Of a stretch of DNA of 64,000 nucleotides, positions 1-30,444 are shown piece after piece (within the stretch, counting starts at the first letter, position 1; each line of letters starts with the position of its first letter). The notes beneath the pieces were generated by a model. That model ran no database searches. It was not told the origin of the DNA and saw only the letters and a program-made list of their open reading frames with translations. The stretch is from an uncultured Thermoplasmatales archaeon. Lineage in GTDB: Archaea; Thermoplasmatota; E2; UBA202; DSCA01. The stretch lies in contig CAZESS010000002.1 of assembly GCA_964514975.1 (NCBI GenBank), positions 24,958 to 88,957 of the forward strand, given 5' to 3'. Both the position numbers and the translations under genes were made by a program.

Positions 1-1519
1 CTTCATCGGAAATCGAGATTGTTTTGACGGTAAATTCCTTTTTTATTCGCGGGAATACAAGTCCGTAAGTTATCACGACGCGATTATGGCGCAGGCCACG
101 GTTGCGGTGATATGCTTGGTACATTTCGTTATCGAACAGGATTTGTTGCAACCATTCCCCCATGAATATGGGTTCATCGTTGCCCAAATATCCATCCGCG
201 CTGTTCTGATGTATTCTATGTGCATCGCATTTTTTCGCGATTTCGCGGCTGCAAATTTTCTTCTTTATTTCGTCAATTGGTTTGTATAATAATTTCGCCA
301 TATACTCATGAATCACATCTTCGCTGATTGCATATGTTCCCAAAATAACAAGTGCGTCTTTATCGGCGAATTGGTTGCTGCTGCGAAGGTTACCAAAATA
401 TTCGCCGTTTATCAACGAATCATCGACAACCTCTTTATGCCCGATTATACCGATGTTGCCATCGCCAAATATTTGCCTCAAATGCTGCAAATCAGGAACC
501 AACCAATCGTCAATTGAATCACGATGGTAGATAAAACTTCGCCGTGGTCGATAACCTCTTGGTCGTAACCGATAAACATGCGTGTCCTTGTTTTGCCATT
601 TCGATGTGAATATTTGCACATTGACATCGCGGTTGAAACCAATTTCGCCGTTATATGCTTCCAATAAAAAATGAAAAAACTTGCGATGGAACGTTGCATC
701 AAGAAACACGAGCGGCACACCCTCCTTAACAAGGTCAAATGCATTATAATACAATGGCACGTGATATTCACGGTCGTAATCGTCATATCGCCGCGCCCAC
801 CATAAATAGTCCCAAATATTGGGCGCGCTATTGGAGAGCAAATGCTTTATTTCCTTCTCTGATGCATCGTTTTCTATGGCGGTTCTGACCGCTTGCTGAT
901 GATGACCGCTCACCGCTACCTCACCGATATAATACCACGTGGATGAAGTGAAATCGCCGGTTTCCATTGATGCAATATTATGTTCGCTTTCACCAATCGC
1001 GCGCATCCAATCGACAACGGCATCCCTATCGAATTCGAGCGTGTCCATCGCGATCTTATTTTCGTCGAAGAACGCGATTGTAGGATATGGTTCAATATGC
1101 TTTGTTTTTAGATATTCATACGGCGCGAATACGCGCTCTCGCTCATCGAATTGCTGTTTATATCGGCAATTGCTACGATTACATAATTCACATAAAACAC
1201 CAATAGGCAACCCTCGTTCACGCCGTGCATCAACGCCTTCGTTCCATTCGCATTTGCGGCCAAATCCTTCCCAATGCGAATAGTGGTAATCGCTGATACC
1301 CATATCCGCTATTATCTCGTCGATTGTGTCATGACGGTCGGTAAAATAAAACGCATCGGGCTGCGTTTTCATGTATTGCATAACCGCATAGGTTTTGCCG
1401 ATGCCGGGCTGATGCGCCAAAACGGTTATGTCTGCATCCAAATCGTCAAAATCGACATCCTGCGGCTCGCACATTTCTGTTTCCAAAAACGTTATGCCGT
1501 CGCTGCATGTTTCGCGCAT
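1..1519 (-). CDS. P-loop NTPase, putative Fe-S-cluster (Rad3/XPD-like?) helicase, 3'-truncated by window edge
   Basis: Continuous minus-strand frame from ATG at 1519 (in-frame TAG just upstream) to position 1; not in the ORF track because no stop lies in the window. Walker A 'AHQPGIGKTYAV', Walker B-like 'IAFFDENK', and a Cys4 cluster (C-x20-C-x2-C-x4-C) between them. AT-rich codon usage unlike the GC-rich flanks. Confidence 0.55.
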   Translation of the reverse strand, partial: MRETCSDGITFLETEMCEPQDVDFDDLDADITVLAHQPGIGKTYAVMQYMKTQPDAFYFTDRHDTIDEIIADMGISDYHYSHWEGFGRKCEWNEGVDARRERGLPIGVLCELCNRSNCRYKQQFDERERVFAPYEYLKTKHIEPYPTIAFFDENKIAMDTLEFDRDAVVDWMRAIGESEHNIASMETGDFTSSTWYYIGEVAVSGHHQQAVRTAIENDASEKEIKHLLSNSAPNIWDYLWWARRYDDYDREYHVPLYYNAFDLVKEGVPLVFLDATFHRKFFHFLLEAYNGEIGFNRDVNVQIFTSKWQNKDTHVYRLRPRGYRPRRSFIYHRDSIDDWLVPDLQHLRQIFGDGNIGIIGHKEVVDDSLINGEYFGNLRSSNQFADKDALVILGTYAISEDVIHEYMAKLLYKPIDEIKKKICSREIAKKCDAHRIHQNSADGYLGNDEPIFMGEWLQQILFDNEMYQAYHRNRGLRHNRVVITYGLVFPRIKKEFTVKTISISDE

Positions 1520-1595
1520 TGTATCGTGTTGTTGTGCGTAATGTGGTGGCGATACAAATAACTAATCAATCGCACTTTTGGTATAATAAAGAACA

Positions 1596-2009
1596 TCACA
1601 AGGTTCGTGAGAGCAGGAATAACCATAGCGGGATAAACAATAAGGGAAAAACTGTACCCAACCAAAAATTTGCTGCCGCAAGTATGCCCAATCGTGCAAA
1701 TTTTCTATTTTCACGAGATTGTTTGTAATCTTCATCGAGTTTTTCTATTCTACATTTGATATCTTCAATCTCGCCTCGCTGACGATTCGATACGAACCAA
1801 AAAATTGCCGTAATTACTGTGCCAATTACCGCTATAGCAAAAGAAACTCCGTTTTCTCTTAATGAATCAATTCCAAAAGATGAAATATACGACAAAACGA
1901 GCAGTGATTCAGCGACAAGTAATAAATTTATTCGATTCGTAAAGAGGTTGTCAGCATGTAACAAATATCGCCAACGACGTTCTAATAAATTTTCATCATC
2001 ATCTATCAT
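1596..2009 (-). CDS. small integral membrane protein (3-4 predicted TM helices), unknown function
   Basis: ORF-track 137 aa; hydrophobic stretches 'LLLVAESLLVLSYISSF', 'AIAVIGTVITAIFWFV', 'LGILAAANFWLGTVFPLLFIPLWLFLL'; AT-rich; directly upstream (same strand) of the helicase-like gene. Confidence 0.5.
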   Translation of the reverse strand: MIDDDENLLERRWRYLLHADNLFTNRINLLLVAESLLVLSYISSFGIDSLRENGVSFAIAVIGTVITAIFWFVSNRQRGEIEDIKCRIEKLDEDYKQSRENRKFARLGILAAANFWLGTVFPLLFIPLWLFLLSRTL

Positions 2010-2116
2010 GCCATAATTAATGTAAAACGGTAAAAAAACCTATCGCACATATTCATAAAAAATATAATATCAATTACATTCTCAGAAAAATTTCACGCGC
2101 CGCTTACTACGACATC

Positions 2117-2200
2117 GCGTTGTTTCGCTGCGGACAAAAAACAGTATACGAATCACGACAACGACAACGAATCGGCTTGACGCGCATCGTTGGTGTCGTA
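2117..2200. repeat. 84-bp direct repeat, copy A ('gcgttgtttcgctgcgg...gaatcggcttgacgcgc...')
   Basis: About 85% identical to 3410-3493; lies about 155 bp upstream of the ATG at 2355. Confidence 0.7.
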
Positions 2201-2354
2201 TGTGCAGCATACTTTACATTTAAACCATAGGGTGCAAATAGAAATCATACGATAAACGAGTGATTCATATCAAACAGCGCTTAACTTTTTTATTTAAAAA
2301 ACGTAAATCAAAAATACTATAATTTTGATATACGATACACATTATGTGGTTTAG

Positions 2355-3365
2355 ATGCCGGCAAAAAAATTTAACAGAAATCCTTTCAACGAGAAATTAA
2401 TACATAGATTTTTTTTCGAAACTCTTTATTGCGACAAGCAAAATCGCGATTTACTTGTTCCATCAAACATTAAGCAAGATCTAAAAAAACTAAACCTCGT
2501 TGTTCCCGAAGCATCTATTGTCGAAGGCGGATATCGACCGGATTTTAAATTGTATTTTAAGGGTATGGAAAAAACGGTGGCAGTCGAAATAAAGTGGCAC
2601 TCTAAAGATTTAAAAGAAAATCAAAAAGAAGCTCTTATCGGTGACACGGATACAAATGGAAACAGGGGATACGTTCTGAGTTTTGATGACGAAGATATCG
2701 AGGTTGAACATGTACAAATTGACAAAGAATTATTTGAAAATTGGCTTATCAAGCGAGTTAAATCGCTATGGAATGATGCATATTCCTATAAAATCGAAAA
2801 ACAAATTGGTAAACGAACTTGGATTGTTATTTTGAGGGGAAAATCAATACAAAATTTTCAAAAAATGGTCAAACAACATCGCGATAATTTTTGGGCATTC
2901 CAAAATACTCCGTTTATAATGAAAAATTTATTAGAAATAAAGCATAGAGATGAAATCATTTTCTTATTAGTAAAAGCAAGCGGAAATGAAAGACAGGCAT
3001 TACAGCGAGATTCGAGAGAAAAGTTAGATGTGCTCTCATTCTTTGTCGGCAACATAAAAGAACCTTATGTTATGTATCTGAAAGGCCCTAAAGCAACGTT
3101 TTTTGAGGGCAGGGACGACTTATCGGTCAACAACAGGAAATGGCCTCATTTTATTGAATTTACAGAGGAAGCATATATGAAATTCGAACAAAACGCCTGC
3201 ATAAATAGGAACAACTTTTCAAAATCCCTCAGGAAAAAAATTGCCGATTCATGTAACAAAAAAGGAAAAGGAATTCCAATATTACTTGATGATATTGAAG
3301 CAAACGAACTTAAATCTGAACTTAGACTCGAGTGTAATCGCCTTAATAAGGTAGTTGCAATATAA
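2355..3365 (+). CDS. PD-(D/E)xK (restriction-endonuclease/Hjc/NucS-like) nuclease domain protein with uncharacterised about 200-aa C-terminal domain
   Basis: N-terminal 'EASIVEGGYRPDFKLYF...VAVEIKW' fits the E...PD...(E/V)EIK nuclease signature; 336 aa; AT-rich; bracketed by the 84-bp direct repeats. Confidence 0.5.
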   Translation: MPAKKFNRNPFNEKLIHRFFFETLYCDKQNRDLLVPSNIKQDLKKLNLVVPEASIVEGGYRPDFKLYFKGMEKTVAVEIKWHSKDLKENQKEALIGDTDTNGNRGYVLSFDDEDIEVEHVQIDKELFENWLIKRVKSLWNDAYSYKIEKQIGKRTWIVILRGKSIQNFQKMVKQHRDNFWAFQNTPFIMKNLLEIKHRDEIIFLLVKASGNERQALQRDSREKLDVLSFFVGNIKEPYVMYLKGPKATFFEGRDDLSVNNRKWPHFIEFTEEAYMKFEQNACINRNNFSKSLRKKIADSCNKKGKGIPILLDDIEANELKSELRLECNRLNKVVAI

Positions 3366-3409
3366 CCTGCATACCAAAAAATTTTTTCCGAGTTACTTGC
3401 TTAGATACT

Positions 3410-3493
3410 GCGTTGTTTCGCTGCGGATGAAAAACATTATACGAATCGCGACTTCGACGGCGAATCGGCTTGACGCGCGTCGATAGTGTCGTT
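3410..3493. repeat. 84-bp direct repeat, copy B
   Basis: About 85% identity to 2117-2200; about 153 bp upstream of the RHH gene ATG at 3646. Confidence 0.7.
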
Positions 3494-3645
3494 AGTAGGC
3501 GATAGTTGCCACCAAAACCATGGGTTTGTATGTCGAATTCTACGCGGTTCACGCGGTTTCGTAAGTCGTTGGCATCGTACGCCACATACACGTTCCATAC
3601 AGCGCCGAAGAATTGCTTTTTTATGTGCATAAAGAATCGAGAATC

Positions 3646-3957
3646 ATGGCATCGAAAAAAACCCGTACCACGATTTCGATACCGCGCGATCTGCGCGACG
3701 CGGCGAAGGAAGAGGGCATCAACATATCGCGATTTGTAACCGAGCGATTACGCGAATTTTTCGCAGAAAGACAAATTTTCTCCGGAGCCAGTTACTCGGG
3801 TTCAAATCCCGATATGCCCGTTTGCCGCGACCATAGGGGCCATGGCGGCACTGGAAAGGCAGATAGAGATGGTACAAAAGGATGTGGAGGTTCGGAAGGC
3901 GTACCTCTATCTGCCCCCCGTGTATATCAACCGTACGAGCTATTTAATCATTGTTAA
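3646..3957 (+). CDS. ribbon-helix-helix (CopG/Arc/MetJ-type) DNA-binding protein with low-complexity C-terminal tail
   Basis: 'MASKKTRTTISIPRDLRDAAKEEGINISRFVTERLREFF' has the beta-strand/helix/helix RHH pattern; downstream tail is Gly/Ser/Arg-rich. Confidence 0.55.
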   Translation: MASKKTRTTISIPRDLRDAAKEEGINISRFVTERLREFFAERQIFSGASYSGSNPDMPVCRDHRGHGGTGKADRDGTKGCGGSEGVPLSAPRVYQPYELFNHC

Positions 3958-4164
3958 CATCTGGGCTATGACCATGGATTGCTCGCGGTGTCGTCATCCA
4001 GAAGGCCGATGCCATGGCGAACGAGCAATAATGGCCCGCAGCGCCGGGAAACGTTTATATATGAGTGTGTCTTACGCCCCACCGGGGAAGGGTGAACGCC
4101 TCCACCCTCTTTTTGTGCCTCCCCCTTCCCCATGCCTCCCTTTTTAGCCAGTGACAGGCACGAT

Positions 4165-5481
4165 TTACAACCCGGCATTGTAGCTGACATAGATGTCAGC
4201 CTCGAGCATCTCCATGTCATCGCTGTAAAAATGGTGGACGAAATAGATGTTTCCCTGCCCGTCGAGGCATGGCTCACCAGCGAAGTTTGAGATGATTTCC
4301 TCCGGCTGGCTCCATCCACCACCGGTTTTAACCGAACGATATATGGCCGGACCCGGATAGCCCATCCCGCTGGAGCGGGTGAACCAGAGCTCGGAGCCGT
4401 CCGCCGACACCCATGGCCGGGAATCCTGAGAGGGCGTGTTCACCGGAGCGCCGAGATTGACGGGCTCCGTCCAGGCGCCGTTGACCAGTTCCGTAGTCCA
4501 GATATCAAGGCCGCCGTGGCCGCCCTCGCTGCGGTGAAAGTACATGGTTGTCCCGTCGGCCGTCAGATGCATCTCCCCGACGTTGTATTCCTCGTTGAGC
4601 AGCCGCCCGGCATTCTCCCAGTGCAGCCACGCGTCGCCCGTCCGCATGGCGGTCCACAGGTCGCCGTCGCTCCGGTAGTTACCCGCACGGAACGAGGCAA
4701 ACCACAACGTGTCATCAAGGACGAAGGGGGCGCCGTCGAGCGCCAGGTCGTCGTTGAGGACGACGCGCTCCGGCTCGGTCCATCCGTTGGCCGTCCGTTC
4801 GGCGCACCATATTCCGGTGACGCCGTCGGTGACCTGCTCGCTGGCGGGCACGTCCACATCCGGGGTAAAAAAGAAGTATAACGCATTTACATCCGGGGTC
4901 ACAAAGCCGGCATCCTCCGCCCCTGCGGTGTTGACCGACCCGGGCATGGGCACCGGCTGCCGCCATCTGTCATCGTGCACCACGGGCGGAAAACGGTCAT
5001 TGCCGGGAGTGCCTTTGACCGCATCCGGCGGAATGGCTTCCTCGCGTTCCTGCACCATGTCGACGCCGAAGGTGAACGGGCCGAACATCTGGCAGATGCC
5101 ATGGCGGACGTCGCCGCCGGCCTGCACCATGAGCTCCGCCGGGCCGAGACCCAGGAAAAACGTGCTCTGCACCACGGTTTGTTCGCCTGCCGGCACCGTC
5201 GGGATGGTGCCGCTAGCATACCCGGATGGCCATAGGGATCCCTGCACGTCGATGGTCCACGGGACATCGCTGGCATCGGCGGGCCCCTCGTTTGCAATGG
5301 TCACCATTACGCCAACGCCCACGTTGACTGCCTCGATGACAACGACCGTGTCATTGTCCGCCGGGCTTTCCATGCACCCACTCAACACGGGCAACGGCGT
5401 CACCGTCGCTCCGAGCAAAACGGCGACCATGGCGCTTCCCCACATCCGATGGCGCAGCACGCGCTCCCAACCCTGGTTCAT
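4165..5481 (-). CDS. secreted/lipoprotein beta-propeller protein (TolB/PD40-like WTEP repeats)
   Basis: Signal peptide with 'LSGC' lipobox-like motif; repeated 'AWTEP'/'GWTEP'/'GGWSQP' blades; 438 aa. Confidence 0.5.
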   Translation of the reverse strand: MNQGWERVLRHRMWGSAMVAVLLGATVTPLPVLSGCMESPADNDTVVVIEAVNVGVGVMVTIANEGPADASDVPWTIDVQGSLWPSGYASGTIPTVPAGEQTVVQSTFFLGLGPAELMVQAGGDVRHGICQMFGPFTFGVDMVQEREEAIPPDAVKGTPGNDRFPPVVHDDRWRQPVPMPGSVNTAGAEDAGFVTPDVNALYFFFTPDVDVPASEQVTDGVTGIWCAERTANGWTEPERVVLNDDLALDGAPFVLDDTLWFASFRAGNYRSDGDLWTAMRTGDAWLHWENAGRLLNEEYNVGEMHLTADGTTMYFHRSEGGHGGLDIWTTELVNGAWTEPVNLGAPVNTPSQDSRPWVSADGSELWFTRSSGMGYPGPAIYRSVKTGGGWSQPEEIISNFAGEPCLDGQGNIYFVHHFYSDDMEMLEADIYVSYNAGL

Positions 5482-6127: not shown

Positions 6128-6231
6128 CTATAGCCTCCATAGGGGTAGCACGTACAGCATATTTATAGCTATCGAACACCGGCGCATACATTTAAATGCG
6201 GATACCGGTTTAAACCATGGGAGGTAACATC

Positions 6232-6981
6232 ATGCACATATATTCTGGAAGGAAAGGACTGGCGGTGGCAGCCGTCGCCCTCTTTGTAGGGCTGACACTG
6301 GCGCCGGCTGGCGGCCTGACGGAGGCACCTGCAAGCGGGAATACATCCATGCAGGACAGAGGGTCATGCCGGATGGATGGAGCGCAGGACATGCTGACGG
6401 TGACGGTCGAGGAGCACCGGCCCGATGGAACAATGGGGACATGGACGGTATCCTGCATCGGCGCCGACGTCGAACGGATGACCCGGGAGCTCCAGATAGC
6501 ATCGAGCACCCATGAGACATTCCAGGTGCTGGCGGCCCATGGTCTCATCCAGGCCGATGGCAGCCATGAGATGCTCGCGGCCATATGGGAACAGACGGGC
6601 ATGACCGCGGACGTGCAGGATATCTGGCTGCCGCCGCTGGCAGTCATGTTTTTCAGCGAGGTCAGCATGACCTACCGAGGGGGTGGCACCATGCGGCTGG
6701 GGATGACGCCGTTTCTCCGGCTCATCAACCGGTATCTGAAAACCGACCTGCAGCGGGGCATCGACCTCGTCGACGTCTGCTGGGGGCTCCGCGGCAGCCT
6801 GCACACCCGGGGACTGCTCGGTGAACATCACCTGACATTGCGGCCCGGCATGAGCTCCATGACCGGGTTCATCGGATACGGCGTGCACATACCACTGCTG
6901 CGGCACTCGTTTTACGGCGCCGCGGTGATGACCGTCACCGCCGGCCTGGGTGAGCACGACTTCGACCCCTGGTTCCCATAG
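6232..6981 (+). CDS. secreted hypothetical protein
   Basis: Signal peptide 'MHIYSGRKGLAVAAVALFVGLTLAPAGG'; ORF-track frame 6217-6981, start moved to the M preceding the signal peptide. Confidence 0.35.
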   Translation: MHIYSGRKGLAVAAVALFVGLTLAPAGGLTEAPASGNTSMQDRGSCRMDGAQDMLTVTVEEHRPDGTMGTWTVSCIGADVERMTRELQIASSTHETFQVLAAHGLIQADGSHEMLAAIWEQTGMTADVQDIWLPPLAVMFFSEVSMTYRGGGTMRLGMTPFLRLINRYLKTDLQRGIDLVDVCWGLRGSLHTRGLLGEHHLTLRPGMSSMTGFIGYGVHIPLLRHSFYGAAVMTVTAGLGEHDFDPWFP

Positions 6982-22124: not shown

Positions 22125-22145
22125 GAAAACAGGGTGGAGGAAGGC

Positions 22146-22649
22146 CTACGGACTTTCAAGACCGATAAGCCAAATCGGCACCTGGATAATATACCTCAGA
22201 TGAGGCAGATATTTTTTGACCTTATCGAATCTCATGCTTCCTCGCCAAGTTGGGTCATACTTTTTCTCAATTAATTTTTGAAATTGACGTGTTGTAACTA
22301 TGTAGATACCTACGTCTATCTCGTTTCTGTATGAATAGGAGAGAGTTTGGAATTTCAACAAATCTATTCCCATAAAAGAGGGGTGAGAGAAAGCGACCTC
22401 GACCCCAACCCGGTTTTTCATAAAATCTATCTTTGCAGCGGGCTCATCCTCCGGGGCAAACACGGGCTGTTCGGTTTTCCATCCTTTTCCGGTAAAACTG
22501 TCCTTGAATGCCTGATTTAGATTCGGCCTCGTCATTTCGTTTGGATTCAAATCAATCGTGTCGATAATTTCTTTTACTTCCTGTTTTTGTGCCAGTCGGC
22601 TATTCAAGACTTCTTCTGCAAACCGATACGACCAGTCTCTATATCGCAT
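22146..22649 (-). CDS. BglII/BamHI-fold type II restriction-endonuclease-like protein (orphan; catalytic Gln/Glu position is Ala)
   Basis: 'KIDFMKNRVGVEVAFSHPSF...NEIDVGIYIVTT' parallels BglII 'DIDFGKRDTLVEVQFSNYPF...MKVAIIITKG' and BamHI 'RVGMEFETGNISS...EIDLAIILMP'. AT-rich island; no methyltransferase nearby. Confidence 0.5.
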   Translation of the reverse strand: MRYRDWSYRFAEEVLNSRLAQKQEVKEIIDTIDLNPNEMTRPNLNQAFKDSFTGKGWKTEQPVFAPEDEPAAKIDFMKNRVGVEVAFSHPSFMGIDLLKFQTLSYSYRNEIDVGIYIVTTRQFQKLIEKKYDPTWRGSMRFDKVKKYLPHLRYIIQVPIWLIGLESP

Positions 22650-22947
22650 TATTTCTTTCCCGTTCTAGATAAAGTTTTTCTTGAATGAAATCTGCTGTAA
22701 CCGATGAATATGGAGATTGATATCTCACTGAATTATCTTGCTTAATCTTTTTGACCAAGCCGGCAGAAACCATCTTTTCCAGCGATTTAAACACCGATGC
22801 ACGATATTTGATAGGAAAATTCTCTCCCTCAAGCTCATCCAATATTTCTTGGACGGTTTTTGCCTTGTCGATAATCACTCGAAGGATTTGCCGGGCTGAT
22901 GACAACGACGAGATATCAAGCGTATCCTGAAAGTCCGGTTCTTCCAT
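22639..22947 (-). CDS. winged-helix DNA-binding protein (putative controller/regulator)
   Basis: 'YRASVFKSLEKMVSAGLVKKIKQDNSVRYQS' wHTH pattern; 11-nt overlap with downstream endonuclease-like gene. Confidence 0.45.
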   Translation of the reverse strand: MEEPDFQDTLDISSLSSARQILRVIIDKAKTVQEILDELEGENFPIKYRASVFKSLEKMVSAGLVKKIKQDNSVRYQSPYSSVTADFIQEKLYLERERNNAI

Positions 22948-23038
22948 CTAGTGGACAAATGCTATTAAAAGATCTTAACACTTTGTTTCTTTATAGGAAA
23001 CAAAACATCATTTTTCTACTGGCGATAAAGAACCGGAC

Positions 23039-23910
23039 ATGAACGAGCTCGGCTTGAGTCTGAAATTAAATTGGACATACCCGAATATGGGTGTATTTTA
23101 TTCTGAAAAACCGCCCTTACGAGGAACATTTAATGAGAGACTTGAAAAAGCTAAAAAATTCGGCATCTCCCGCATAGAAATACCCTTTGATCTGGTTCGA
23201 CTAGAAAACGAGGAATATTATCTATTGAATAAAAAAAAATTGGAGACATCCCAGAAAGAGAAGACTTTAAAAGTCTCTACAACACCAGTTGCAATAATAC
23301 CTGTGAGTATATTCTACATACAGACCCGGAGCTAAAACCCCGCCATTACTTAAGATGGAACTCGGAGAAGTGGAGAAATAAGTACCTGAAATCTATCATA
23401 GATTTTGCAGAATTCAACGACCAAGCCCCTTTCGCAGTAGAGTTCCATCCAGGCAGAACGTCAAGAAGCAAAAATCATTTTGAGGATTTTATTACCGATG
23501 CGATTTCAATGTTTAGCGATATCTTCGGAGATAAACGTCCCTATCTTTACATCGAAAACAGAACAAATCTATACATCTCTACAGTCGAAGACATCATTCA
23601 GTTGTATGAGAAAATTCAGGATAGAGTAAGTGGAACTGAAAAGAAGCGTTTCGGATTTAGCATAGATGTTATGCAGCTTTATTCGCAAATTGGAGCAGAA
23701 TCAATCAATGAGCTCCCGAAAATTCCTAGACACGCGATAAAAAACTGGCATATCCATTACCGCCACCAACCACCTAGCATCGATGACCCAATAGATTGGC
23801 GTAAAGTTGTAAACTATATCATGCAAAGTCAGCCGGCCATTGTTTTACCAGAGGTATTTTCAGATCGAGGTGTACAAACCACTCTTGAATTCATCGAAGG
23901 TTTACCATAA
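23039..23910 (+). pseudogene. xylose-isomerase-like TIM-barrel (AP-endonuclease family 2-like) protein, split by frameshift at an A9 tract
   Basis: ORFs 23039-23335 (frame 2) and an open frame 23233-23910 (frame 1; track ORF 23509-23910) join into about 290 aa if the A9 run at 23231-23239 gains one A. 'AVEFHPGRT' and 'FGFSIDVMQLY' resemble Endo IV 'LLNFHPGSH' and 'GVCIDTCHAF'. Confidence 0.45.
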
Positions 23911-23945
23911 TTATTACAATTACATATAACCACTTAACCCTCCCT

Positions 23946-23986
23946 CGATTTTGTTTCAAAAGTTTAACAAATATGTCAAATTAACC
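23946..23986. repeat. about 40-bp direct repeat R2a ('gattttgtttcaaaagtttaacaaatatgtcaaattaacc')
   Basis: About 80% identical to 24097-24137. Confidence 0.55.
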
Positions 23987-24013
23987 GAATGGTAAAACAA
24001 TCATTGCCCTGGC

Positions 24014-24070
24014 CACTAACACCTATATTTCCTCCCATTCTTTGAGGATGCTCTGCCAGTTGAACTCCTC
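24014..24070. repeat. 57-bp direct repeat R1a: duplicated 3' end of gene 25570-26799
   Basis: 56/57 identical to 25561-25617, which encodes the last 17 codons (...EEFNWQSILKEWEEI*) of the membrane gene. Confidence 0.8.
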
Positions 24071-24096
24071 CGCGTGCGGACAACGGCTGCCCCGTG

Positions 24097-24137
24097 ATTT
24101 GTTTGAAAAATTTAACAAAAATGTTAAATTAGTGGAG
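24097..24137. repeat. about 40-bp direct repeat R2b immediately upstream of abiEii-like gene
   Basis: 'gatttgtttgaaaaatttaacaaaaatgttaaattagtgg'; contains TATA-like 'tttaacaaa'. Confidence 0.55.
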
Positions 24138-24149
24138 TGATTATGGGGT

Positions 24150-24968
24150 ATGGCAGTGTGGAATGACATCGTTACGGCTGGCCGGAGCAGCGACCAGCCG
24201 CTCCATCACGTATTCCAGGAGCATCTGCAGAAAACCGTGCTGACGGCGCTCAGCCGGAGAGAGGCGTTCACCGACATCGTGTTCCAGGGTGGGACAGCCC
24301 TCTGCTTCTTCTACGGCAACCCCCGCTTCTCGGAAGACCTCGACTTCGTACGCCGGGGCAGCAGTACAGTAGACCTGACAGCCCACGCCACGGCGGTAGA
24401 AACCTTCGTAGCCGCCATCTATCCCTTCCTCGACGGATGCAGCGTCACGGTCCAAAAAGACACGCGGGAGCTACAGCGGCTCGTGCTCACCACCCGGGGC
24501 GAGGTCACAGAGCAGCGCTGCCGCATCCACCTCGAGCTAGCACACGTTCCATCCTACATGGCAACCCCACGCATCCTCGATCATCCGCCGTTTCACCCTG
24601 CGGTGCAGGTGGAGCAGCCCGAGGAAATCCTGGCGGACAAGCTGGCAGCGCTCGCCCTTCGCCCGTATCTCAAGGGCCGCGACCTCTGGGACATCTACTT
24701 CCTGACCAGGGAAAAAAACATCGATATCCACTGGAATCTGGTGAAGACAAAAATCAGCGATTACAACGGCGACCCGGAGCGGCTTCCTGCAGCCAGCAAA
24801 ACCGTGCAAAACGAGGGTGCACAGGCGCTCGCGGACGAGCTGGCCCGGTTTTTGCCTCCTCGTCTTCACGAGCAGTACCGCTCCAGATTCGACGATATCG
24901 CCGCTCATGTCGCCGCCGTCGCAGCCGCAGCCAGAGACACAATGGAGGAGAACGCCGATGAAGGTTGA
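24150..24968 (+). CDS. AbiEii/DUF1814-family nucleotidyltransferase (type IV TA toxin-like)
   Basis: 'FQGGTALCFFYGNPRFSEDLDF' is the AbiEii nucleotidyltransferase signature; 272 aa. Confidence 0.7.
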   Translation: MAVWNDIVTAGRSSDQPLHHVFQEHLQKTVLTALSRREAFTDIVFQGGTALCFFYGNPRFSEDLDFVRRGSSTVDLTAHATAVETFVAAIYPFLDGCSVTVQKDTRELQRLVLTTRGEVTEQRCRIHLELAHVPSYMATPRILDHPPFHPAVQVEQPEEILADKLAALALRPYLKGRDLWDIYFLTREKNIDIHWNLVKTKISDYNGDPERLPAASKTVQNEGAQALADELARFLPPRLHEQYRSRFDDIAAHVAAVAAAARDTMEENADEG

Positions 24969-25566
24969 CGAATGGCTGGCGTTCTTCCGTCGGCACCGGA
25001 CAAAAAAACTGTTTTCCCTGGCAGATCTCGTCCAGCTCACCGGTATAGACAAGGCGTCGCTCTCGGTCCAGCTCACCCGGCTGATACGGGCCAACATCAT
25101 CCGGCGGGCAGCCCGGCAGTGGTACGAAAACCCGTTCAACCAGCCATCCCGGGAAGACGTCGCCATGGTGCTCCGTCCTCCCGCCTATCTCTCCCTGGAA
25201 TACGCTCTCTCAAAACATGGCATCCTGAGCCAGGCAGCCCGCACGCTCACCCTGGCTACCACACGGCCTCCCTACACATATACCACATCTGATGCAACAT
25301 ACGAATACCACCAGATACGGCGGTCGCTCTTCTGGGGATATAAACAGGAACACGATGTTGCGCTGGCCGAGCCCGAAAAAGCGCTGCTCGACCTCCTCTA
25401 CATACGGCACGTAATGACCGATGAACTGAGCCAGCGCGCCCTGGGGTCGCTCGTCGACGACATGGACCTCGCAGTCATCACCCGGGACAGACTCCGCCGC
25501 TATGCAGACAGATTTCCCCGCGGGGTCAATGAAACGGTGCGCCACCTGACGCCTGCCGTACACTAA
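24958..25566 (+). CDS. AbiEi-like antitoxin/transcriptional regulator (N-terminal wHTH)
   Basis: 'LFSLADLVQLTGIDKASLSVQLTRLIRANIIRR' wHTH; 11-nt overlap with the upstream nucleotidyltransferase gene; about 200 aa. Confidence 0.6.
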   Translation: MKVDEWLAFFRRHRTKKLFSLADLVQLTGIDKASLSVQLTRLIRANIIRRAARQWYENPFNQPSREDVAMVLRPPAYLSLEYALSKHGILSQAARTLTLATTRPPYTYTTSDATYEYHQIRRSLFWGYKQEHDVALAEPEKALLDLLYIRHVMTDELSQRALGSLVDDMDLAVITRDRLRRYADRFPRGVNETVRHLTPAVH

Positions 25567-28742: not shown

Positions 28743-30158
28743 TTACAGGCCGTATTTGAAAATCCATGCCATGTAGCCGTCGTCGCCGACATTGCCCACC
28801 GCTCCGGCGTTGATCTCCATGACGCCGTCGTTGTCCATGTCGCCGACCGAGGTAACCGCGAGCATCCCGTAGGTATCCTCAATGACGTGCTCTTCCTCAT
28901 AGGTTTCGCCGTTCCACCCAAGGATGTGGACCAGGTCGGTGCCGACGCAGACCTCGGCGCTGCCGTCACCGTCGACGTCGCCGATGTCGATGGCCTCGAT
29001 GGTGTCCATCTCCCGCTGCCAGACCCGGTCCCATTTTTGCTGGTAGCCGGTGCCGTTCCATTCCCATATCTGGAGCTCGGGGTGCCGGAAGGTGATGTGT
29101 ATCTCCGGCCGGCCATCGTCGTCGCTGTCCTTGGATACCAGACCGAACACGTGATGGTCGAACTCGGCTATCTCCGTCGCGACGAAGCCGTCGCCTGTCC
29201 AGTCGAGCACGACGCCGCGGTGGCCCGGCCCGACAACGGTTTCGTTGTCGCCGTCGTCGTCCACGTCGGCAATCCAGGGGAAAAACACGGAGCCGCCGCT
29301 GGGGTCGCTCCACGATGCCTCTTTCACAAACTCGTCGCCGTTCCACCCCAGGGCGATGACCTCAGGCACGCCGCGGTAGCCGCCGGTCACGATGATTTCG
29401 TTGTCGCCATCGTTGTCATAGTCGCCGACCACGCAGTCCAGGGTGGTGCCCGACTGCCCCTCGTTTTCGTCGACGATGATGTAGCGGCCCATCAGCGTGT
29501 AGCGCCAGCCGTTCCATTCAAAGGCCGAGAAATGGTTGCCCCATGCCACGCCGATCTCGTTGTCGCCATCGTTGTCCAGGTCGGCGATGGAGAAGCCGGT
29601 GGCGGAGCCAAAGGGCTGGGGTACCCGGTGGTAGTCGCCGAACAGGTTGAGCCAGACGCCGTAGCCGATGCCGAACACCGGGTCCACGATTTTCTGCTGC
29701 TCGTAATATGTTCCCGATGCCATGTCGTATTTCATGACCCGCATGAACGGGTCGCGGCCGCCGATGAGCAGCTCATTTTTCCCGTCGTTGTCAGCGTCGC
29801 CGACAGGCTGCGGGCCCTCGTAGCGGGCGCTCCACTGCGGCCATGGACCATAGTCCCGCTGCCATTGCACCCCGTAGGTGTCATCTACCCCTGATGGTAC
29901 AGGAGCGCCATCGCCGTTGTGATGCAGCGCTGCTGCATCGTCCTGCTGCGTGGTTGCGGGCAGTGACAGCACAACGGCGTTCAATGCAAATAGGAGGAGT
30001 ACGGCCAGCGTGACTGCTTTTCCTTTCATGGTAACAGGGAATGCGATGGCCAAATTATAACGTTTATGCTGGGGCTGCCATCGCTGCACCGTCAAAATCG
30101 TGCAAGATGAGAGGGAGTGAGGTGTAGGCCGTAACCCCCCTTCTGTTCTAGGCGGCAT
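28743..30158 (-). CDS. secreted FG-GAP/integrin-alpha-like beta-propeller repeat protein
   Basis: Signal peptide; repeated 'DxDxDGxNE' Ca-binding FG-GAP motifs ('DNDGDNEI', 'DVDDDGDNE', 'DSDDDGRPE', 'DVDGDGSAE', 'DMDNDGVMEI'). Confidence 0.6.
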   Translation of the reverse strand: MPPRTEGGLRPTPHSLSSCTILTVQRWQPQHKRYNLAIAFPVTMKGKAVTLAVLLLFALNAVVLSLPATTQQDDAAALHHNGDGAPVPSGVDDTYGVQWQRDYGPWPQWSARYEGPQPVGDADNDGKNELLIGGRDPFMRVMKYDMASGTYYEQQKIVDPVFGIGYGVWLNLFGDYHRVPQPFGSATGFSIADLDNDGDNEIGVAWGNHFSAFEWNGWRYTLMGRYIIVDENEGQSGTTLDCVVGDYDNDGDNEIIVTGGYRGVPEVIALGWNGDEFVKEASWSDPSGGSVFFPWIADVDDDGDNETVVGPGHRGVVLDWTGDGFVATEIAEFDHHVFGLVSKDSDDDGRPEIHITFRHPELQIWEWNGTGYQQKWDRVWQREMDTIEAIDIGDVDGDGSAEVCVGTDLVHILGWNGETYEEEHVIEDTYGMLAVTSVGDMDNDGVMEINAGAVGNVGDDGYMAWIFKYGL

Positions 30159-30444
30159 TCACCTTGGCGTCCCACCTCCGAGCGGTCCCGAACAACCGAT
30201 CCCGGTATTTGGACTTGCTCCAGGATGGGGGCCGTTTCACCAGATCCCGCCGCAGCGTCATCCCCGCGGGAGTCATCCTCGCGGCGGGCTGTGTCGTTTC
30301 TGCTCCCCCATACGGGACTCTCGCCCCGGCTGTTACACACCTGGTTCGGGAACGAGGGAGGAGTTTCCTCAGCGCGAAGCCGTGAGCCGCGCACCTACTC
30401 CTCACTCCCGTCGAAGGATAGCCACAGGGATATAAATGCTTTGT

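Follow-up and report, generated by a model that had tools for sequence, protein, structure and literature searches.

An AT-rich island in a Thermoplasmatales archaeon very probably belongs to a tRNA-integrated element with a split integrase and an XPD-like helicase

Introduction

The window analysed here, a stretch of 64,000 nucleotides from an uncultured Thermoplasmatales archaeon, opens with an AT-rich island that encodes a helicase-like protein, a small membrane protein, a nuclease and an RHH-like protein. In a preliminary description, these four genes were taken for a candidate uncharacterised defence or mobile module. We asked whether the genes do belong to one system and, if not, what kind of element brought them together.

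Results

The island and the ends of the element

GC content is 29-50% over positions 1 to ~3830 and 59.5% in the remaining window, a drop as sharp as first described. Among the genes, those of the backbone (helicase, 45%; Int(N), 50%) have a higher GC content than the cargo genes (TM137, 36.5%; p336, 34%). As had been supposed, the left boundary lies outside the window: the left 2.6 kb were recovered from Logan contig L001, and they hold the upstream integrase and att sequences that had been anticipated, in the form of int(C) and an att copy. On the right, where the edge had been placed near 3800, the island ends at 3822, the att boundary. We conclude that positions 1-3822 are very probably the right-hand 60% of a ~6.37 kb mobile element integrated in a Thermoplasmatales-like host, with the gene order attL - int(C) - p255 - helicase(-) - TM137(-) - repeat - p336 - repeat/conserved non-coding region - int(N) - attR. 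The suggestion of a horizontally acquired mobile module thus holds, as an integrated element of ~6.4 kb with a split integrase and a tRNA-derived att. Its right end comprises the following features:

3646..3822, plus strand: int(N), the N-terminal 59 codons of a split SSV-type integrase, comprising an RHH/CcdA-like domain and att-encoded residues
3780..3822, plus strand: attR, 43 nt that repeat the 3' part of tRNA-Arg(CCG), starting in the anticodon loop and running 2 nt past the 3' end; the element ends here on the right
3823..4046, no strand: junction DNA that separates attR from the stretch that is again homologous to the host flank of the sister element L003

The RHH-like ORF is the N-terminus of an integrase

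The RHH-like ORF (3613/3646-3957, plus strand; Pfam CcdA match, 2.1e-5, residues 16-53) had been described as a CopG-type protein. The ORF and its fold assignment stand, but it is not a regulator. It is a chimera, consisting of an element-encoded integrase N-terminus up to 3822 followed by read-through into host DNA as far as 3957; because att sits in the int reading frame, the ORF corresponds to Int(N). Joining window positions 3646-3822 to positions 31-1065 of L001 yields a single open frame for a 403-aa integrase, whose int(C) portion (347 aa) lies at the far left end of the element, outside the window. The reconstituted protein matches Pfam Phage_integrase (PF00589) at 1.4e-12 and has an N-terminal CcdA/RHH domain. 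Two uninterrupted homologues, P0020 (PF00589 and PF16795) and P0045 (CcdA and PF00589), cover 98% of Int in alignments that run through the junction. Among the catalytic residues, R263, K288, R347 and Y381 are invariant in the alignment and H370 is nearly so. PF16795, the SSV-type integrase domain, is not reached by Int itself at E<=1; precomputed matches to it are present on P0020, P0022, P0026 and other homologues.

The last 30 nt of attR (3793-3822) are identical to positions 1-30 of L001 at the opposite end of the element, after which L001 continues in frame as int(C). These 30 nt are seen directly at both ends, and the 43-nt length of the att repeat is deduced from assembly breaks, with Logan unitigs breaking exactly at the edges of attR. 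In L003, the tRNA-Arg(CCG) is intact, and attR is identical to its 3' part; a T-arm-like match lies within attR at 3795-3812. The recovered sequence ends at the start of L001; the L003 locus and the positions of the assembly breaks suggest that an intact tRNA-Arg would be present at attL. The first 9 nt of the junction DNA, TGCCGCGAC, equal the start of an L003-type int(C).

Since att lies inside the frame of a tyrosine integrase, int was cut by the integration, giving int(N) and int(C). On sequence evidence, the mode of integration is that of the SSV-type or 'suicidal' integrases. In the circular form, an intact Int would recombine attP with the tRNA gene. For this element and its close relatives, we detected no circular or episomal form in which int is intact, and none of the fetched contigs had a terminal overlap.

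A distant XPD-like helicase is the conserved backbone gene

The long gene at the left edge of the window proved to be as first described, with a Walker A motif, an FFDENK motif and a four-cysteine cluster:

1..1519, minus strand: XPD/Rad3-like SF2 helicase, codons 1-506 of 576; conserved backbone gene of the element family

The frame from 1519 to 1 is open over all 506 codons, and the final 70 codons lie to the left of the window, at 2367-2578 of L001. Two RecA-like domains form the SF2 core of the protein, which has motifs I (Walker A, AHQPGIGKTY), Ia, II, III, V and VI. Motif II reads FFDENK / IIFLDEN, and the canonical DEAH box is absent, as had been noted. Four conserved cysteines (C90, C110, C113 and C118) lie between motifs Ia and II, in a stretch that is profile-aligned to the CPY region of XPD; their spacing, C-x19-C-x2-C-x4-C, is far shorter than that of XPD. 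An all-helical insertion of ~90 residues lies between DEN (152-154) and DAT (274-276), the positions of motifs II and III. No Pfam or NCBIfam model, including DEAD_2 and Helicase_C_2, matches at E<=1, and the clade to which the protein belongs (about 570 representatives at 50% identity) has no Pfam model. We conclude that it is a very distant XPD/Rad3-like SF2 protein. It would act as a 5'-3' DNA helicase whose metal site would be a compact Cys4 cluster, with helices inserted at the position of XPD's Arch domain and a helical domain at the C-terminus.

To place the helicase in context, we compared related loci. The helicase, Int(N), a tRNA gene and Int(C) occur together in about 20 loci, as 6-8 kb elements in Thermoplasmatales MAGs and metagenomes; in at least 17 loci, a tRNA gene lies upstream of the helicase at a distance of 350-550 bp. 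Across the compared elements, the helicase is present in 19 of 19 and an Int(N)-like small ORF in 13, and TM137, p255 and p336 are found in none. In the sister element L003, an intact tRNA-Arg(CCG) abuts int(C) (91% amino acid identity), the int(N) copy is 86% identical, and int(N) with att lies 7.9 kb away. Other relatives have att pairs at tRNA-Gly (36 nt, 7.5 kb element) and tRNA-Ala (8.1 kb). The host lineage is Thermoplasmatales-like and apparently non-hyperthermophilic, from sediment and wetland-type metagenomes. The helicase is the only gene besides the integrase that the relatives share, and it has a fixed position, divergent from int(N). Hence, it is part of the element backbone rather than a partner of the nuclease.

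The helicase probably serves as the replication helicase of the element. It could open an origin or otherwise initiate replication by acting on the conserved non-coding region beside int(N). The helicase family has no relatives among PLSDB plasmids, INPHARED phages or IMG/VR; therefore, the replication role is argued solely from conservation and position. A further point against it is that the element has no primase, polymerase or Rep. Alternatively, the helicase of an integrative element could be a DinG/XPD-type accessory for DNA repair, anti-defence or defence, with replication occurring passively with the chromosome or by host factors. We consider this unlikely, although it is the strongest of the alternatives: a gene that is the only universally conserved one beside the integrase, in a fixed position while the rest varies, resembles a replication module rather than cargo, and SF2 origin-binding helicases of herpesviruses and NCLDV are both a precedent and structural neighbours.

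TM137, p336 and p255 are probably separate cargo

Two further genes, which we read as independent cargo, were inserted between the helicase and int(N):

1596..2009, minus strand: TM137, 137 aa with three predicted TM helices; lineage-specific cargo
2355..3365, plus strand: p336, 336 aa, with a PD-(D/E)xK nuclease at the N-terminus joined to a modified-base reader of the EVE/YTH type (PUA superfamily) at the C-terminus

TM137 is a multi-TM protein, as reported, with hydrophobic segments at residues 27-47, 52-75 and 107-135 by hydropathy. Its only match is a sub-threshold one to Pfam 8xMP (3.7e-4), and it is absent from all other fetched loci, including L003, and from plasmid records. The assignment of p336 as a PD-(D/E)xK protein is confirmed by an intact active-site motif, with E52, D63, E78 and K80 invariant across a family of 16 clusters; its C-terminal domain, previously without assignment, is the EVE/YTH reader. 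At the sequence level, p336 matches no Pfam, NCBIfam, PADLOC or PDB entry. We regard it as a candidate modification-dependent (type IV) restriction endonuclease, carried as independent cargo, that is predicted to cut DNA with modified bases and so would guard both the host and the element from modified phages or from competing elements. A further gene outside the window, p255, matches PADLOC PDC-S05 models at E values of 1.1e-41 and 2.8e-38; the match spans residues 111-243 and corresponds to the C-terminal half of the models, with the N-terminal half unmatched. Thus, p255 is a PDC-S05 homologue, likewise independent cargo, and PDC-S05 is itself a single-gene phage defence candidate only. Neither p255 nor p336 is present in L003.

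These data bear on the original proposal of an unnamed anti-phage system. In such a system, the helicase/NTPase would be a sensor or translocase, with the nuclease and the membrane protein acting as effectors and the RHH protein as regulator. The genes are adjacent and AT-rich, p336 has a defence-like combination of nuclease and reader, and p255 is a second homologue of a defence candidate on the same element. However, co-occurrence is lacking: about 20 loci have the helicase but neither TM137 nor p336, and relatives of p336 are found without any helicase, standing alone in bacteria such as Photobacterium. Moreover, the supposed regulator is the integrase N-terminus, and p336 is set apart by its flanking repeats and lower GC. 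No PADLOC model matches the helicase, TM137 or p336. The missing co-occurrence largely refutes a joint helicase-membrane-nuclease system, which we now consider very improbable. What survives of the defence idea is its content, in a type-IV-restriction-like p336 and a PDC-S05-like p255, as separate cargo.

Could the element instead be the provirus of a small archaeal virus, with TM137 or the beta-helix proteins of relatives as virion components and the helicase replicating or packaging the genome? Spindle-shaped viruses were the first known source of SSV-type integrases (PMC8371274), TM137 is a small, membrane-embedded protein, six related elements encode beta-helix proteins of 334-1349 aa, a fold common in viral spikes, and the structural neighbours of the helicase among viral proteins are DinG-like helicases and the origin-binding helicases of herpesviruses or NCLDV. 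Yet PHROGs and Pfam searches detected no capsid, portal, terminase or known archaeal-virus MCP family, the helicase family is without relatives in the viral databases, the beta-helix gene is absent from the present element, and no structural gene set is conserved across relatives. TM137 is unique to the present element and therefore cannot be a family-wide structural protein. We judge a provirus improbable, and conclude that the element is plasmid-like, without recognisable virion genes.

Direct repeats flank p336

The direct repeats reported on either side of the nuclease gene are real, and one copy lies in a non-coding region that is conserved upstream of int(N):

2066..2231 (core 2117-2203), no strand: left direct repeat, in the divergent intergenic region between TM137 and p336
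3359-3524 (core 3410-3496), no strand: right direct repeat, upstream of int(N)
3366..3645, no strand: conserved non-coding region that precedes int(N) and includes the right repeat copy

The ~87-nt cores are identical at 74 of 87 positions, far beyond chance, and the similarity extends over 166 nt at 72% identity. The left repeat is 75% identical to a single copy in L003 and gives no RNA-structure or Rfam signal. Window positions 3377-3831 are 86% identical to 3081-2631 of L003, and the non-coding region at 3366..3645 shows no RNA family and no stable fold; it is a candidate int promoter/operator and/or replication origin. We conclude that the repeats around p336 are a duplicated part of this region. 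They most likely trace the acquisition of the p336 cassette, and recombination between them could delete p336 again.

Discussion

We tentatively propose, as a reading that we rate somewhat below an even chance, that the 576-aa protein is the founding member of an unannotated clade of XPD-like Cys4 SF2 helicases and serves as the sole self-encoded replication or origin-opening protein of plasmid-like elements that measure 6-8 kb, integrate into tRNA genes by means of suicidal integrases and form an undescribed family in non-hyperthermophilic Thermoplasmatota. If true, this would be the first Fe-S/XPD-type helicase to serve as the replication initiator of a mobile element, and suicidal integrases would reach well beyond hyperthermophiles.

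The element shares its mode of integration with the SSV-type integrase elements of Sulfolobales, Thermococcales and Archaeoglobales, such as SSV1, pTN3, the pT26-2 family and TKV (PMC8371274, PMC7253208). In common with these, att lies inside the int ORF and is identical to part of a tRNA, for the present element the tRNA-Arg(CCG) of L003; insertion at the tRNA gene leaves int(N) at one end of the element and int(C) at the other; and the catalytic domain is that of a tyrosine recombinase. For suicidal integrases, att lengths of 40-50 bp have been reported (PMC8371274), a range that includes the present att, and PF16795 (Phage_integr_3), found on homologues of the present Int, has been reported for SSV, pTN3 and pT26-2 integrases (PMC8371274). 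In the literature, suicidal integrases are mostly from hyperthermophiles, with five from Methanosarcinales (PMC8371274, PMC7253208), whereas the present host is Thermoplasmatales-like and apparently non-hyperthermophilic. The element is also much smaller (6.4 kb) than pT26-2 and pTN3, its Int has an RHH/CcdA-like N-terminal domain, and its backbone has an XPD-like helicase where the pTN3, pT26-2 and SSV families have their own replication proteins.

The helicase is only ~10-12% identical to XPD, Rad3 and DinG, which are chromosomal repair or transcription factors, whereas the present protein is encoded by a mobile element. It differs further in having DENK rather than DEAH and an extra C-terminal helical domain. 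The third and fourth cysteines are about 30 residues apart in XPD but 4 in the present protein, so it may bind Zn rather than a 4Fe-4S cluster.

The combination of a nuclease with an EVE/YTH reader in p336 is shared with modification-dependent restriction enzymes that have a PUA-superfamily reader. Examples are the EVE-HNH enzymes VcaM4I/TspA15I, the SRA-nuclease enzymes and the archaeal McrB N-domains (PMC6765204, PMC7897488, PMC7641849); p336 departs from the C-terminal HNH arrangement in having its nuclease at the N-terminus, as a PD-(D/E)xK domain. [quoted passage not shown]

Results

The AT-rich island at the left end of the window belongs to an integrated element of an archaeon that carries a suicidal integrase; it is not a novel defence system of several genes. 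GC content is 29-50% across window 1 to ~3830, against 59.5% in the rest of the window, and the horizontal acquisition that the preliminary description read into this sharp drop was borne out. The host is an archaeon, since the window carries an archaeal RNase P RNA (30120-30402). The genes and repeats described for the island are present:

1519 to 1 (-): helicase gene, 506 open codons, with AHQPGIGKTY, FFDENK and, between them, C90/C110/C113/C118
1596-2009 (-): TM137, a 137-aa protein with three hydrophobic helices
2355-3365 (+): p336, a 336-aa protein
2117-2203 and 3410-3496: core of the direct repeats around the p336 gene, 74/87 identical, extendable to 166 nt at 72%
3613/3646-3957 (+): ORF with a CcdA/RHH-like N-terminus (Pfam, 2.1e-5)

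Upstream extension of the island was provided by L001, a 6387 bp Logan contig found by exact-protein look-up (L001 coordinate = window coordinate + 2578). It supplies the left part of the island, including 30 nt of a second copy of the att repeat and the following:

L001: end of the helicase gene, giving the full 576 codons
L001: p255 gene, 255 aa
L001, reaching the left contig end: 347-aa ORF with a tyrosine-recombinase domain

L001 starts with TACTCGGGTTCAAATCCCGATATGCCCGTT, 30 nt that recur at window 3793-3822. This shared sequence resembles the T-arm and acceptor 3' strand of a tRNA. The right end of L001 falls 17 nt inside it, and the neighbouring host unitig (L046) begins exactly at window 3793; these breaks are those expected of a k=31 assembly at a 43-nt repeat, window 3780-3822 (attR). 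Exact look-ups for the left host flank returned only Logan unitigs, all breaking at att, and terminal overlaps indicating circularity were absent from every fetched contig.

The RHH-like ORF of the window reads ...FSGASYSGSNPDMPV and then continues into host DNA, and the integrase frame in L001 opens with YSGSNPDMPVRTSETR... Joining window 3646-3822 to L001 31-1065 gives a single open frame of 403 aa, with the CcdA/RHH-like domain at its N-terminus and a Phage_integrase domain (1.4e-12) at its C-terminus. A database search with this reconstituted integrase matched mostly C-terminal fragments, together with two uninterrupted proteins at 98% coverage: P0020 (357 aa; PF00589 and PF16795, the SSV-type integrase domain) and P0045 (339 aa; CcdA and PF00589). 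Their N-termini align with the window ORF (for example, KKTRTTISIPRDLRDAAKEEGINISRFVTERLREFF vs KKKKTTVRVPEHLLDMAKAYGISVSQFLTIRLREFF), and the integrase alignment shows conservation of the catalytic residues (R, K, R, H, Y). On these alignments, the ORF is int(N), the N-terminal half of the integrase. Its RHH-like N-terminus therefore stands, but the regulator role first proposed for it does not.

A sister element occupies the same site in a Thermoplasmatales MAG contig (L003/L008; GCA_964414415.1). There, an intact tRNA-Arg(CCG) (L003 10516-10591, -) adjoins an int(C), the C-terminal integrase half, that is 91% identical to that of the window's element. From its anticodon loop to its 3' end, this tRNA gene has the same sequence as window 3780-3821. 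The L003 int(N), 86% identical to the window's, lies with a second att 7.9 kb from the int(C) end. At attR, tRNA scans detected a T-arm-like match but no complete tRNA, in keeping with a partial copy. From the L003 layout, we infer that an intact tRNA-Arg lies directly left of L001 in the window's genome. Left of att would be the 5' half of tRNA-Arg(CCG), GGGCATATGAGGTAGCATGGACATCCTACTGGC or similar; the attP junction of the excised form is predicted to read ...GACAAATTTTCTCCGGAGCC...ATATGCCCGTTAGGACATCGG, and attB would be the tRNA 3' end followed by TGCCGCGACCATAGG.

The host flanks of the two elements are syntenic (aconitase, YjbQ and a 193-aa protein are 90%, 75% and 67% identical). Two genes of host-like GC in the window are missing from the L003 flank: one for a 438-aa PD40/beta-propeller-repeat protein adjoining attR (4165-5481, -) and one for a 254-aa protein (6217-6981, +). 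The tRNA-proximal region is therefore variable outside the element too. The 9 nt after attR (window 3823-3831, TGCCGCGAC) match the first bases of L003-type int(C) past its att, after which similarity ends; host-flank homology to L003 picks up again only at window 4047, so that 3823-4046 falls outside it. The 9-nt match may have been left behind by an L003-like element that occupied this tRNA site earlier.

Between the elements themselves, the helicases are only 62% identical, against 91% for Int(C), which looks like exchange of an integrase-att module between diverged backbones. The L003 cargo is wholly different (TnpB, an Rce1-like protein and a Zn-ribbon protein, the TnpB insertion being IS200/605-type), and p255, TM137 and p336 are absent from the L003 element. 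A 145-nt exact direct repeat, made up of att and about the first 100 nt of int(C), flanks the sister element (L003 2538-2682 and 10413-10557), so that its int(N) ORF runs on into int(C)-like sequence, reaching 178 aa in all; this arrangement points to integration in tandem or in series, or else to recombination with a remnant. A 74-aa basic ORF starts at the helicase stop codon in L001 (2141-2365, -; ~213-437 nt left of the window). Over 57 residues it shares 42% aa identity with an L003 counterpart, so it may encode a small coupled protein, or the DNA alone may be conserved.

Across genome and metagenome loci of relatives, a tRNA gene (Arg, Gly, Pro, Val or Ala, in either orientation) precedes the helicase start by 350-550 bp in at least 17 cases, with an Int(N)-like RHH ORF between the two. 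Contigs that extend far enough show int(C) and another att copy 6-8 kb away. The element of L004/L006 is 7.5 kb, with an att of 36 nt of tRNA-Gly, and that of L020 is 8.1 kb.

Gene sharing in an all-against-all comparison of 19 elements
Helicase: 19/19
Int(N)-like small ORF: 13/19
Int(C): all elements reaching the far end
Beta-helix proteins: 6/19
TM137, p255, p336: window's element only

The occurrence of the helicase in every element, with recurring tRNA and integrase context, makes it the backbone gene of a family of small elements that integrate at tRNA genes. In related genomes, helicase and integrase recur and the three cargo genes are not shared. Homologous beta-helix (NosD/Cohesin-containing) proteins, 334-1349 aa long, occur in six more distant members (L004 14569-15618, L007 12556-15870, L018, L020, L021 and L029) and may have a surface or virion role; the window's element lacks this gene.

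Most relatives have int(N) directly next to the helicase gene and divergent from it; in the window lineage the cargo lies between them. Window 3377-3831, covering non-coding DNA and int(N), is 86% identical to L003, where the repeat is single-copy; the window's left copy matches the same L003 stretch at 75%. Given the single L003 copy and the cargo placement, the direct repeats are best read as a partial duplication of the conserved non-coding DNA beside int(N), arising when p336 was acquired. This non-coding DNA may be an operator or an origin. We rejected a non-coding RNA or riboswitch in the repeats and this region, since fold z-scores against shuffled sequence were near 0 (-0.9 to +0.6, both strands) and Rfam gave only chance-level matches. 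A 95-aa ORF (window 3343-3630, -), antisense to the conserved non-coding DNA and right repeat, matches no family and is probably spurious; other ORFs overlapping the conserved non-coding DNA, also unmatched, were dismissed likewise.

Scans of Pfam, PHROGs, NCBIfam and PADLOC gave no above-threshold match for the helicase, TM137 or p336. The AF2 model of p336 (pLDDT 86) has two domains, an N-terminal PD-(D/E)xK nuclease and a C-terminal EVE/YTH reader with a predicted aromatic pocket (W156, W180, W263). Modification-dependent restriction enzymes are built in this way, with a nuclease joined to a reader of the PUA superfamily (PMC6765204, PMC7897488, PMC7641849), and p336 is, on this model, a candidate type IV (modification-dependent) restriction enzyme. 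Its profile matched no PDB sequence. The 16 members of its family, one from Photobacterium leiognathi, are solitary genes in variable regions; no helicase lies nearby, and the adjacent called neighbours include no methyltransferase domain. The proposed single multi-gene defence system fails on this solitary occurrence and on the confinement of TM137 and p336 to the window's element among the helicase loci compared. p255 matches PADLOC PDC-S05, a single-gene defence candidate, at 1e-41, and its C-domain resembles that of TrmBL2. The sole match of TM137 is a sub-threshold one to Pfam 8xMP, a name for which we found no relevant literature; no TM137 relatives occur in the element loci or collections searched, and neither TM137 nor p336 matched the plasmid and phage collections. 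Cargo GC (34-41%) is lower than that of the backbone (45-50%), consistent with later acquisition.

The close helicase family is tiny: 5.8 billion proteins yielded 18 clusters, and no Pfam domain is present in any of them. An exhaustive profile search reached 571 representatives at E<=1e-3, and 0/10 distant members sampled had a significant Pfam match. Conserved motifs follow SF2 order: GxGKT, FYFTDRH, SHWEGFxRxC...CxxCxxxxCxYxxQF, IIFLDEN, VFLDATF, GNLRSSN, EIYQAFHRNRGLR. A narrow profile matched no PDB sequence; an 88-sequence profile matched XPD (2vl7) by sequence at E 3.8e-5, with Thermoplasma XPD entries next (E~0.04). The 2vl7 match spans Walker A, motif Ia and the Cys region, whose final C-x-Y corresponds to CPY in XPD. 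The XPD Fe-S domain lies between motifs Ia and II and its Arch domain between II and III; the helicase has its Cys cluster and a ~90-residue helical insertion, respectively, in these intervals. Unlike XPD, it has DENK in place of DEAH, much tighter Cys spacing and no match to XPD Pfam models. We classify it, from these sequence features, as XPD-like and not a member of the XPD family. No relatives were found in PLSDB, INPHARED or IMG/VR (plasmid, phage and viral collections). Among viral structures, the nearest include DinG-like helicases of phages as well as SF2 origin-binding proteins from herpesviruses and giant viruses, which offer a functional precedent. Most plausibly it is the element's replication or origin-opening helicase, because it is the only conserved non-integrase gene and holds a fixed position divergent from int(N).

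Elsewhere, a second AT-rich island (window 22130-24130, 35-45% GC) contains no recognised methyltransferase and carries:

22146-22649 (-): BglII-family restriction endonuclease (Pfam 1.5e-34)
overlapping the BglII-family gene: controller-like wHTH gene, 102 aa
23039-23335 and 23509-23910: two further ORFs without family

Directly to its right, at host-like GC, is an AbiEii/AbiEi toxin-antitoxin pair (24150-25566).

Discussion

A tempting call of a new defence system gives way to a testable anatomy of integrase module, helicase backbone and swappable cargo. The features of interest are the undescribed XPD-like helicase backbone, the non-hyperthermophile host range and the defence-type cargo. 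In the limited library of literature searched, we found no description of the helicase or of the element family; this unannotated helicase family defines a new group of integrative elements in archaea, very small in size, which are potential vectors in a phylum with few genetic tools. PD-(D/E)xK-EVE is a new, mobile-element-borne architecture among candidate modification-dependent restriction enzymes. For annotation, small 'RHH/CcdA antitoxin' ORFs near archaeal tRNA fragments can be int(N) halves.

SSV-type self-splitting integrases, described mainly from hyperthermophiles, operate in Thermoplasmatales-like archaea of ordinary sediments. As in other SSV-type or 'suicidal' integrases, for which the published att length is 40-50 bp (PMC8371274, PMC7253208), att lies inside the gene, and integration cuts that gene into int(N) and int(C).
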